Under the pieces are notes generated by a model. That model searched no databases. It was not told where the DNA came from and worked only from the letters and a program-made list of their open reading frames with translations. Of a stretch of 9,206 nucleotides of DNA, positions 938 through 1,650 are shown piece by piece (the first letter of the stretch is position 1; every line of letters begins with the position of its first letter). Source of the stretch: a virus (lineage: Duplodnaviria; Heunggongvirae; Uroviricota; Caudoviricetes); IMG/VR virus record IMGVR_UViG_2534681940_000023, positions 1-9,206 of that record; one strand, written 5' to 3'. Both the position numbers and the translations under genes were made by a program.

Positions 938-1327
938 TCAGGCGGCTGCACCCGCCGTTTTCTCGTACTTACTGATAGTGATCTCGACCTTCCCTCCCGG
1001 GATAACCGGTCCCCACTCAACCAGCATTCTTTTCACCTGACTGTCGTCTTCCCACACACCCGCATGGGTCAGGGCGTCAAACAGCGCCTTGTTATAGTTG
1101 TCCAGATCGCGGATCCGGTTATCCGGCGGAAACAACACGATCTCCACTGAAGCAGGTGCCGACGTTGGTTTCGGCAGACGACGTAACTGCTCAACTATTG
1201 CTGCACACGCCGCGCTCTGGAATTTGCGCCCCGCCGCGCTTATCAGGCTCTTACCTGCAAACGCCCCTTTGTTGGGGTGTCGCCAGTACGTGTTCACGCT
1301 GGGCGGAAAAGGCAGGATCAGCTTCAT
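938..1327 (-). CDS. rusA: Crossover junction endodeoxyribonuclease RusA (Holliday junction resolvase)
   Basis: 129 aa. 'LPFPPSVNTYWRH...RDLDNYNKALFDALTHAGVWEDDSQV' matches RusA-family motifs. The start overlaps the upstream stop as ATGA (1324-1327), as expected for a nin-region gene. Confidence 0.8.
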   Translation of the reverse strand: MKLILPFPPSVNTYWRHPNKGAFAGKSLISAAGRKFQSAACAAIVEQLRRLPKPTSAPASVEIVLFPPDNRIRDLDNYNKALFDALTHAGVWEDDSQVKRMLVEWGPVIPGGKVEITISKYEKTAGAAA

Positions 1328-1650
1328 ACTTTCAGGCCCCTCTCATGTAACCAGTGGGTTGCACGCAGCCTTGCGTTTTCCTCACCGGCAAGCAGTGCGC
1401 GGATAATCCCGACCGCCTCGCTGTCGTCGTCCTTCACCGCGGTATGAAGCGTTATCCCCCGGGCCACGCCACGCTTTATCGTGATGACGCCTTTTTTCTC
1501 CAGTGCGCGAAGATGCTCCACCGCTGCATTCACCGAACGGTATCCCAGCATGGTTGCCACCTCCTGATTGGTTGGCGGGAAGCCACGTTCTTTCTGATAA
1601 GAAATCAGCATATCCAACACCTGCTGCTGGCATTGAGTTAACGTCGTCAT
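1324..1650 (-). CDS. LexA N-terminal DNA-binding-domain protein lacking the S24 peptidase domain
   Basis: 108 aa. 'QQQVLDMLISYQKERGFPPTNQEVATMLGYRSVNAAVEHLRALEKKGVITIKRGVARGITL' parallels the LexA winged-helix domain ('[52 protein letters not shown]'). It has an RBS (AAGGGAGA) and an ATGA overlap with the Dam stop. Confidence 0.7.
   Translation of the reverse strand: MTTLTQCQQQVLDMLISYQKERGFPPTNQEVATMLGYRSVNAAVEHLRALEKKGVITIKRGVARGITLHTAVKDDDSEAVGIIRALLAGEENARLRATHWLHERGLKV

Follow-up and report, generated by a model that had tools for sequence, protein, structure and literature searches.

The 9,206-nucleotide stretch of DNA analysed here (positions 1 to 9,206 of the IMG/VR virus record IMGVR_UViG_2534681940_000023, class Caudoviricetes; hereafter the window) carries a small gene, referred to below as the LexA-like gene, which lies between a dam methyltransferase gene and a rusA resolvase gene (Table 1). 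Its product is a LexA-type winged helix without the S24 protease domain, which in LexA holds the Ser119/Lys156 dyad. The Pfam profile LexA_DNA_bind (PF01726) matches the protein along all of its positions (1-65 of 65) with 69 bits against a cut-off of 23.7 and an E-value of 2.9e-19, while the same profile search found no match to Peptidase_S24 (PF00717) in the 108 residues, at which the protein stops. The NCBIfam lexA equivalog model TIGR00498 gives 70.5 bits, under its cut-off of 110.95, and is matched only at model positions 1-91 of 203. In a search of the PDB, the top matches were chains of E. coli LexA (E-value of about 1e-15, residues 2-70, about 50% identity). An earlier note on this DNA had predicted a LexA DNA-binding domain devoid of the autocleavage domain, had proposed the PF01726 search and had named another winged-helix family, such as a MarR or terminator fold, as the alternative; the profile matches and the superposition on LexA described below bear out its prediction.

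The LexA-like protein and its C-terminal tail

An AlphaFold model of the protein, for which a 22-sequence family alignment served as input, has a mean predicted local distance difference test (pLDDT) score of 84.9 and superposes on DNA-bound LexA (3jso) with a root-mean-square deviation of 1.0 Å over 67-68 residues at 50-51% identity. Non-LexA folds (MarR, GntR, DtxR) appeared in the structure search with this model only at E-values above 0.01. By its fold the protein is not a controller (C) protein of a restriction-modification system, as it has the LexA winged helix and no match to HTH_3 (PF01381). Furthermore, no restriction endonuclease adjoins the gene, the neighbouring methyltransferase being an orphan Dam, and a PADLOC scan for defence systems returned nothing relevant.

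With regard to DNA recognition, LexA contacts bases through S39, N41, A42, E44 and E45 (PMC13416735, PMC3091678), and the LexA-like protein keeps four of these five residues (S39, N41, A42 and E45), E44 being replaced by valine. K53, within the basic pair at 52-53, and the wing residues R64-G65-I66 are kept as well, the wing being invariant in the family (residues according to PMC13416735, PMC3091678 and PMC4807011). The wing has been credited with fixing the rigid half-site spacing of LexA (PMC8565304, citing Zhang 2010), and the crystal structure shows specific reading of the CAG triplet, with Asn41 reaching A15 via water (PMC5999292). We infer that the two glutamates of LexA read the cytosines of CTG/CAG, the part assigned to Glu44 drawing on secondary citations as well. 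In comparison with E. coli LexA (1lea/3jso), the fold and the residues listed above are thus alike; the differences lie in the lack of the S24 catalytic and dimerisation domain and of a conserved Ala-Gly site, in the replacement of Glu44, in the presence of a hairpin tail, and in a gene that is phage-encoded and located in a phage early operon.

The tail that follows the winged helix is predicted to form a two-helix hairpin behind a flexible linker, and it belongs to the family rather than to this one protein: phrog_362 ('transcriptional repressor') matches the protein over its full length, C-terminal tail included (profile positions 1-106 of 106, E-value 1.2e-59), and the tail pattern, which includes A93, A97 and L101, is kept in relatives down to 39% identity (39-53%; P0123, P0126, P0127, P0131, P0139, P0165, P0172, P0213 and P0230 were aligned). 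Pfam and structure searches found no known interaction module that the tail resembles. Judging from the model, residues 74-102 are probably a dimerisation module that stands in for the C-terminal domain of LexA. An engineering precedent exists in LEVI and LexRO, where LexA DNA-binding domains joined via linkers of 1-8 residues to VVD or RsLOV give dimerisation-dependent repression of more than 500-fold (PMC7102963). By analogy, a layout of domain, linker and dimeriser may suffice for operator-specific repression. These constructs share with the phage protein the LexA domain, the short linker and an unrelated dimeriser, and their repression is operator-specific and depends on dimerisation; they differ from it in being synthetic, in their LOV photoreceptor dimerisers and in the LexA408 altered-specificity helix, whereas the natural tail is a 30-residue hairpin and a putative dimeriser.

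A HMMER alignment of residues 71-90 with residues 71-86 of LexA places LLA88-G89E of the LexA-like protein on the LexA cleavage site, VAA84-G85E. Elsewhere in the family this pair reads AN, VG, ER, TR, SG, DD, CS, AE or AD. Since the pair is not conserved in relatives, and lies within a predicted helix, A88-G89 was ruled out as a cleavage-site mimic.

Table 1. Features of the window and of related loci discussed in the text (aa, amino acids; nt, nucleotides; ORF, open reading frame)
Feature	Location	Strand	Basis or remarks
LexA-like gene	1324..1650	minus	108 aa including Met; ATG start, stop TGA at 1326..1324; ORF list
LexA-type winged helix-turn-helix, residues 1-68	1447..1650	minus	Helices 6-22, 28-35 and 40-52, strands 56-58 and 66-68; AlphaFold model, 3jso superposition
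Recognition helix, residues 39-52, SVNAAVEHLRALEK	1495..1536	minus	Alignments to E. coli LexA
Flexible linker, residues 69-73	1432..1446	minus	pLDDT < 50 at residues 71-74
Predicted two-helix hairpin, residues 74-102 (helices 74-88 and 93-102)	1345..1431	minus	AlphaFold block with pLDDT of about 90
ATGA overlap of dam stop and LexA-like start	1647-1650	minus	Read from sequence
GGAG, 8 nt upstream of the LexA-like ATG	1659-1662	minus	Read from sequence
ATGA overlap of LexA-like stop and rusA start	1324-1327	minus	Read from sequence
RusA Holliday-junction resolvase, downstream neighbour	938..1327	minus	PF05866, 56 bits; phrog_34
Phage Dam N6-adenine methyltransferase, upstream neighbour	1647..2300	minus	PF05869, 156 bits; TIGR01712, 255.6 bits
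30-aa ORF, MSLLNDVQKFIEAHPGCTSGDIADAFYVGA, between O-like gene and dam	2303..2392	minus	Read from sequence
O-like replication initiator, head of the tightly packed block	2395..3381	minus	phrog_391, E-value 5.6e-82
Prophage CI	6361..6987	plus	HTH_3 and Peptidase_S24 (95.9 bits); QAGQ, GDSM and TVKKL motifs in sequence
Methyltransferase slot, Dam	window, 1647..2300		PF05869
Methyltransferase slot, C5-cytosine	L086, L088, L125		PF00145
Methyltransferase slot, MT-A70	L128, L129		PF05063
SOS-type box of the late methyltransferase gene, TACTGTAAAAATAAACAGTG	L003 (SfV), 34170-34189; L004 (mEp460), 41021-41040		At least 120 IMG/VR contigs
Cousin arrangement with UmuD-like and DinI genes	L119		SOS box, UmuD-like ORF, SOS box overlapping dinI promoter, DinI (PF06183), orfX, LexA-like gene, orf67, DUF968
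Cousin arrangement with RecA homologue	L121		C5 methyltransferase, SOS box, 361-aa RecA homologue, orfX, LexA-like gene, orf67
Cousin arrangement with RusA-like gene	L097		SOS box, orfX, LexA-like gene, orf67, RusA-like gene, DUF968

Gene order in the window and among relatives

On the minus strand of the window, the order is cro (6063..6263), a CII/CP76-like gene, a gene with a ProQ/FinO domain, Rha, the O-like gene, a 30-aa ORF, dam, the LexA-like gene, rusA and KilA-N. From the O-like gene to rusA the genes form a gap-free block, with starts and stops that are coupled or overlap. The small ORF fits into it with an ATG 3 nt past the O-like stop and a stop codon, TAA, that overlaps the dam start (TAATG); it has no Pfam match, and its slot holds a 162-aa PerC-family gene in SfV and mEp460. 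No promoter-like or terminator-like site was found on the coding strand across positions 1-3600. Given a gap-free block without a promoter or terminator signal, it follows that the LexA-like protein would be a delayed-early product of the rightward early promoter, made once CI has been inactivated. Read from its sequence, the block appears to belong to the rightward early operon of a lambdoid prophage whose CI is of the S24 type. The Q antiterminator gene of the closest phage, mEp460_4F5, lies about 2.3-2.6 kb beyond the LexA-like gene, past rusA, a KilA-N-type gene and a DUF968-type ORF, in a part that falls outside the window. The earlier note had placed the LexA-like gene in the nin region, which agrees with its position between the O-like gene and, in mEp460_4F5, Q; its translational coupling to Dam, likewise proposed there, is seen in the ATGA shared by the dam stop and the LexA-like start. 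The same note had called the prophage's own CI autocleavable, and this is plausible in view of the S24 domain and the A-G, GDSM and KK motifs.

Several other features of this early region were observed. A 130-aa ORF at 4639..5031 (minus strand), between the CII-like gene and Rha, encodes a ProQ/FinO RNA-chaperone domain (PF04352, 51.7 bits) and lies within a segment of about 2 kb that is lacking in mEp460_4F5, a phage whose match extends over only 76% of the window. A 553-aa ORF at 3783..5444 (minus strand) does not represent a single gene: the match to Phage_pRha (PF09669, 95 bits) is confined to the final 187 residues (3783..4346), and the part upstream of these runs across the ProQ-domain ORF in a different frame and looks like an untranslated open frame. 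Additionally, a perfect 12-nt inverted repeat (AACCACTGCCCC and GGGGCAGTGGTT, with a 5-nt loop) is found at 3528..3556, inside a small ORF (3362..3595) upstream of the replication gene, and may form a structured RNA or serve the early operon as a terminator-like element.

The neighbourhood of the gene was compared among 80 IMG/VR viral loci that carry a 99-100% identical LexA-like gene. The rusA gene lies directly downstream in all 80 of them and dam directly upstream in only 54, so rusA is the constant partner of the LexA-like gene and dam is not. Divergent members (40-50% identity) again overlap with RusA, by 4 nt in most and by 31 nt in L086 and L087. The slot upstream of the pair is filled by three unrelated methyltransferase families, all of them with overlapping start and stop codons. 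There is no methyltransferase upstream of the LexA-like gene in mEp390 and in a Citrobacter prophage, and in the loci L119 and L121 the gene stands without an adjacent RusA. A further stand-alone LexA-domain family of 158 aa (phrog_29443/phrog_24920; L088-L095), with a longer and different C-terminal part, takes the same place, with a C5 methyltransferase on one side and RusA on the other. Four proteins of 140-220 aa (P0132, P0133, P0156 and P0159) carry the LexA DNA-binding domain twice in tandem, without an S24 domain, and look like covalent pseudo-dimers. In five others (P0025, P0092, P0098, P0002 and P0121), the LexA domain is fused to Dam or the LexA-like ORF is extended by 80-110 residues upstream; the probable cause is a frameshift or a wrongly called start at the ATGA overlap.

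The LexA-like gene is present in 2,232 of 5,426 complete E. coli genomes (41%), in up to four copies per genome, with a nucleotide identity of at least 90% in all matching records but one. The PGAP annotation labels it 'LexA family transcriptional regulator'. The hosts found in the genome scan were Enterobacterales only, matches in Vibrio and Photobacterium being the hosts' own lexA genes. About 50 deposited phages carry the gene, among them SfV (as orf42), SfII, SfIV, cdtI, mEp460, 1720a-02 and several Stx2a and Stx2c phages, and stand-alone LexA-domain proteins of 65-150 aa are widespread in phages. A survey of Stx phages lists the gene, with no study of it, as a pham with pfam01726 that occurs in 15 phages (PMC8136144), and a 'bully phage' preprint on 1720a-02, which carries the LexA-like gene, ascribes the effect to Cro and not to the LexA-like protein. 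The literature search returned catalogue mentions only and no functional study of the LexA-like family. What was already known, then, is that the gene family is catalogued and extremely common and that phages can encode truncated LexA homologues (gp6, discussed below). New relative to the literature found are the hairpin tail, the family-wide loss of Glu44, the SOS-box-driven cousin operons with DinI, RecA or UmuD-like genes, and the obligatory linkage to rusA with interchangeable methyltransferase families upstream.

SOS boxes in carrier phages and in the Klebsiella/Enterobacter cousins

SOS boxes were scored with a position matrix built from SOS boxes, and all scores given here are approximate. 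In complete phages that carry the LexA-like gene, strong boxes occur upstream of dinI-like genes (mEp460, mEp390), inside the cI gene of mEp460 and at the start of a late methyltransferase gene (SfV, mEp460). Canonical CTGT-N8-ACAG sites number 5 in mEp460 and 2 in SfV, against 0.4 expected in each, and they are the only dyads of LexA geometry that are over-represented in carrier phages. The search for altered operators (CTxT-N(6-10)-AxAG, and CTGT/ACAG arms at spacings of 0-16) found nothing enriched beyond the canonical boxes; counts of 3-nt half-sites were swamped by codon bias and are uninformative. Likewise, no enriched dyad other than canonical SOS boxes was found in the window, SfV, mEp460, mEp390 and the Citrobacter prophage, and a scan of the window for inverted repeats returned the CI/Cro operator region and terminator-like hairpins only.

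The box of the late methyltransferase gene, TACTGTAAAAATAAACAGTG, is near-consensus and falls on codons 3-9 of this late-region DNA methyltransferase (SfV orf48), between Q and the lysis genes. Among the contigs that have this box and enough upstream DNA, 30 of 40 also carry the LexA-like gene, an association that is confounded by physical linkage. Variants of the box in other phages (TACTGTAAAAATATACAGTG, CACTGTAAAAATATCCAGTA) keep the CTGT/ACAG (or CCAG) arms, and the sequences suggest that these arms are under selection for LexA binding, not for coding alone. A 26-bit box, TACTGTTTTTACATACAGTA, was also observed inside the coding sequence of the mEp460-type cI (L004, 31970-31989), and it recurs in 17 related viral loci.

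A subgroup of the family from Klebsiella and Enterobacter is 41-45% identical to the protein of the window and has about 30 extra residues at its N-terminus; a Klebsiella-type member matches phrog_362 at positions 2-101 of 106, tail included. SOS-type boxes lie upstream in all 28 viral loci of this subgroup, with scores of 15-30 bits, and in 27 of them the score is at least 18 bits. Three arrangements, one locus each and read on the strand of the gene, were inspected (Table 1), and no convincing terminator was found between the box and the LexA-like gene in these cousins. With boxes upstream and no terminator between, the cousins' LexA-like protein is therefore evidently induced by the SOS response, and its gene has those of known SOS modulators as neighbours. 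Between the sub-arrangements of the cousins the recognition helix varies, while the boxes stay canonical. The RecA homologue of L121 (3598..4683), located directly behind a canonical SOS box, was identified from sequence motifs alone. Two small genes, orfX (phrog_1813, about 80 aa) and orf67 (phrog_1212, 67 aa, overlapping by 4 nt), always flank the LexA-like gene in L097-L123 and are absent from the subgroup of the window.

Proposed function, rival explanations and significance

Taken together, the gene may be understood, tentatively, to encode a small DNA-binding protein that is insensitive to RecA* and consists of a winged helix (residues 1-68), a short flexible linker and a two-helix hairpin, the insensitivity following from the lack of an S24 domain and from the lack of conservation of the aligned A88-G89 pair. 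The reading proposed for its function, which is held with somewhat less than even confidence, is that of a surrogate repressor of SOS boxes, or of a subset thereof, that RecA* cannot remove. According to this proposal, the protein would be made in the delayed-early phase, after CI inactivation, its hairpin would dimerise it, and the dimer would bind dyad sites of LexA geometry, most likely host-type SOS boxes or some of them. Repression of LexA-controlled promoters would in this way be restored during prophage induction, when the host LexA has already been cleaved, and RecA* would be unable to remove the bound protein. Possible targets would be the SOS genes of the host, antirepressors and colicins under LexA control, and SOS-controlled morons (dinI, the late methyltransferase), whether these lie in the same prophage or in a co-resident one. 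Counted in favour of the surrogate repressor are the 50% identity to LexA, the four kept contacts and the wing, the SOS-box operons of the cousins, the enrichment for canonical boxes in carrier phages, and a host range of Enterobacterales that share the box. A test of mimicry by host range has, however, no discriminating power, because all Enterobacterales hosts share one SOS box.

Several results weigh against such a repressor and bear at the same time on its closest rival, a phage regulator with an operator of its own, whose LexA domain has drifted to a phage-specific dyad and which would act with delayed-early timing on phage or moron promoters, without any action on the host SOS response. 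The window contains no exact CTGT-N8-ACAG, and sites with at most one mismatch number 3 against 3.4 expected by chance; furthermore, no site reaches 10 bits and no CTGT...ACAG dyad was found at spacings of 0-16. The earlier note had also reported no perfect box in the window and was right to discount its nearest match, which scores under 10 bits on the matrix, but this match lies at 5335-5350 and not at 5326-5341. Neither an SOS box nor a promoter signal was seen upstream of the block, and hence no LexA-controlled promoter for the gene of the window. In place of Glu44, every member with the tail has V, A, T, F, L or Y, whereas xNAAE[E/D/Q]HL is retained in genuine LexA proteins, and positions 42-45 differ between sublineages (SVNAAVEHL, SVNTIAGHL, SPNAVALHL, SANAIAEHI) while the adjoining SOS boxes stay canonical. 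Such changes are the usual sign of diverging specificity and thus favour an own operator; the lack of covariation between helix and box suggests that the boxes serve the host LexA, and lends no support to autoregulation. Dimerisation and DNA binding are themselves predictions. In addition, the one characterised phage LexA-domain protein, gp6 of GIL01, a truncated LexA homologue 44% identical to the LexA domain of its host, binds a site that is not that of the host LexA and activates transcription (PMC6182141). Its site is GaCACAnnTGTGaC and its target the late promoter P3, and the SOS response of the host triggers the lytic cycle of GIL01 (PMC6182141), which parallels the SOS-box-controlled cousins; the wide spread of stand-alone LexA-domain proteins in phages also fits a regulator of this kind. 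GIL01/Bam35 gp6 and the LexA-like protein are alike in being phage LexA domains without a protease, gp6 being made early after SOS-triggered induction. They differ in that gp6 is essentially a bare domain without a hairpin tail, from a tectivirus of Gram-positive hosts, and acts at a late promoter through a non-LexA palindrome, whereas here the host is enterobacterial and the phage lambdoid, with late genes controlled by Q. A structure search of BFVD also found LexA-domain proteins of Tectiviridae (23-28% identity, 1.4-1.9 Å), which shows that the fold is shared and does not imply orthology to gp6. An own operator is made less attractive by the lack of any candidate site in the window, SfV, mEp460, mEp390 and the Citrobacter prophage, and by the Q antitermination of the late genes, for which a late activator is not needed. 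Moreover, the domain is nearer to the host LexA (50%) than gp6 is to that of its own host, with most contacts and the wing retained. A regulator with its own operator is accordingly a possible, somewhat doubtful explanation, and about equally likely as an occupant of SOS boxes.

The linkage to rusA and the methyltransferases raises a further explanation, in which the LexA-like protein is an accessory of the block for replication, methylation and recombination that targets or modulates RusA or the methyltransferase, or in which its hairpin binds RecA, LexA or a part of the replisome. The overlap of rusA with the LexA-like stop in every one of the close loci and again in divergent members, the filling of the upstream slot by methyltransferases of PF05869, PF00145 and PF05063, and the start and stop coupling of all genes from the replication initiator through rusA are what such a role would predict. 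However, genes in lambdoid nin regions often keep a fixed order without interacting functionally, RusA is not next to the gene in L119 and L121, and mEp390 and the Citrobacter prophage have no methyltransferase there. The residues with which LexA makes its sequence-specific contacts are conserved, for which non-specific binding would have no need, and no resemblance of the tail to a known interaction module was found; an accessory role is therefore judged unlikely. Far less probable still is a LexA decoy with a retained cleavage-site region, cut in trans by the catalytic domains of the host LexA, CI or UmuD and hence responsive to SOS. The A-G-E in register with LexA in the HMMER alignment and the extension of the TIGR00498 match to model position 91 would agree with a decoy, but the A-G pair is lost even in close relatives from Citrobacter and Salmonella (LLANE, LLVGE) and is absent in distant ones, and the segment is predicted with high confidence as a helix and not as a strand-loop substrate.

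The SOS response controls mutagenesis, prophage induction, the release of toxins (Stx, colicins) and tolerance to DNA-damaging antibiotics. It is conceivable, if on the doubtful side, that about four in ten E. coli genomes hold a prophage-encoded LexA surrogate that is proof against RecA*, is switched on at prophage induction (in the Klebsiella-type members by SOS directly) and closes SOS promoters again after the loss of LexA. Should the SOS-box reading be true, the outcome would be the same as with DinI, PsiB and GIL01 gp7, namely a mobile element that damps or reshapes the host SOS response; these proteins have RecA filaments or the LexA protein as their targets, whereas the LexA-like protein would act on DNA as a surrogate repressor. 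In the Klebsiella-type cousins, a DinI gene lies in the same operon as the LexA-like gene. The phage would thereby impose an 'off switch' on the SOS regulon, which could silence LexA-controlled antirepressors of rivals, colicin and lysis genes, error-prone polymerases and ruvAB, and which would provide the SOS-controlled operons of the cousins with a built-in negative feedback. If, instead, the protein has its own operator, it would add a regulatory level, so far uncharacterised, to the early operon of a very common group of lambdoid phages, to which several Stx2 phages belong, as do SfV, SfII and SfIV, which convert the serotype of Shigella. If it is an SOS repressor proof against cleavage by RecA*, the prophage content of a cell would shape SOS dynamics, the competition of prophages in polylysogens and the behaviour of Stx phages, a dependence that current models ignore.

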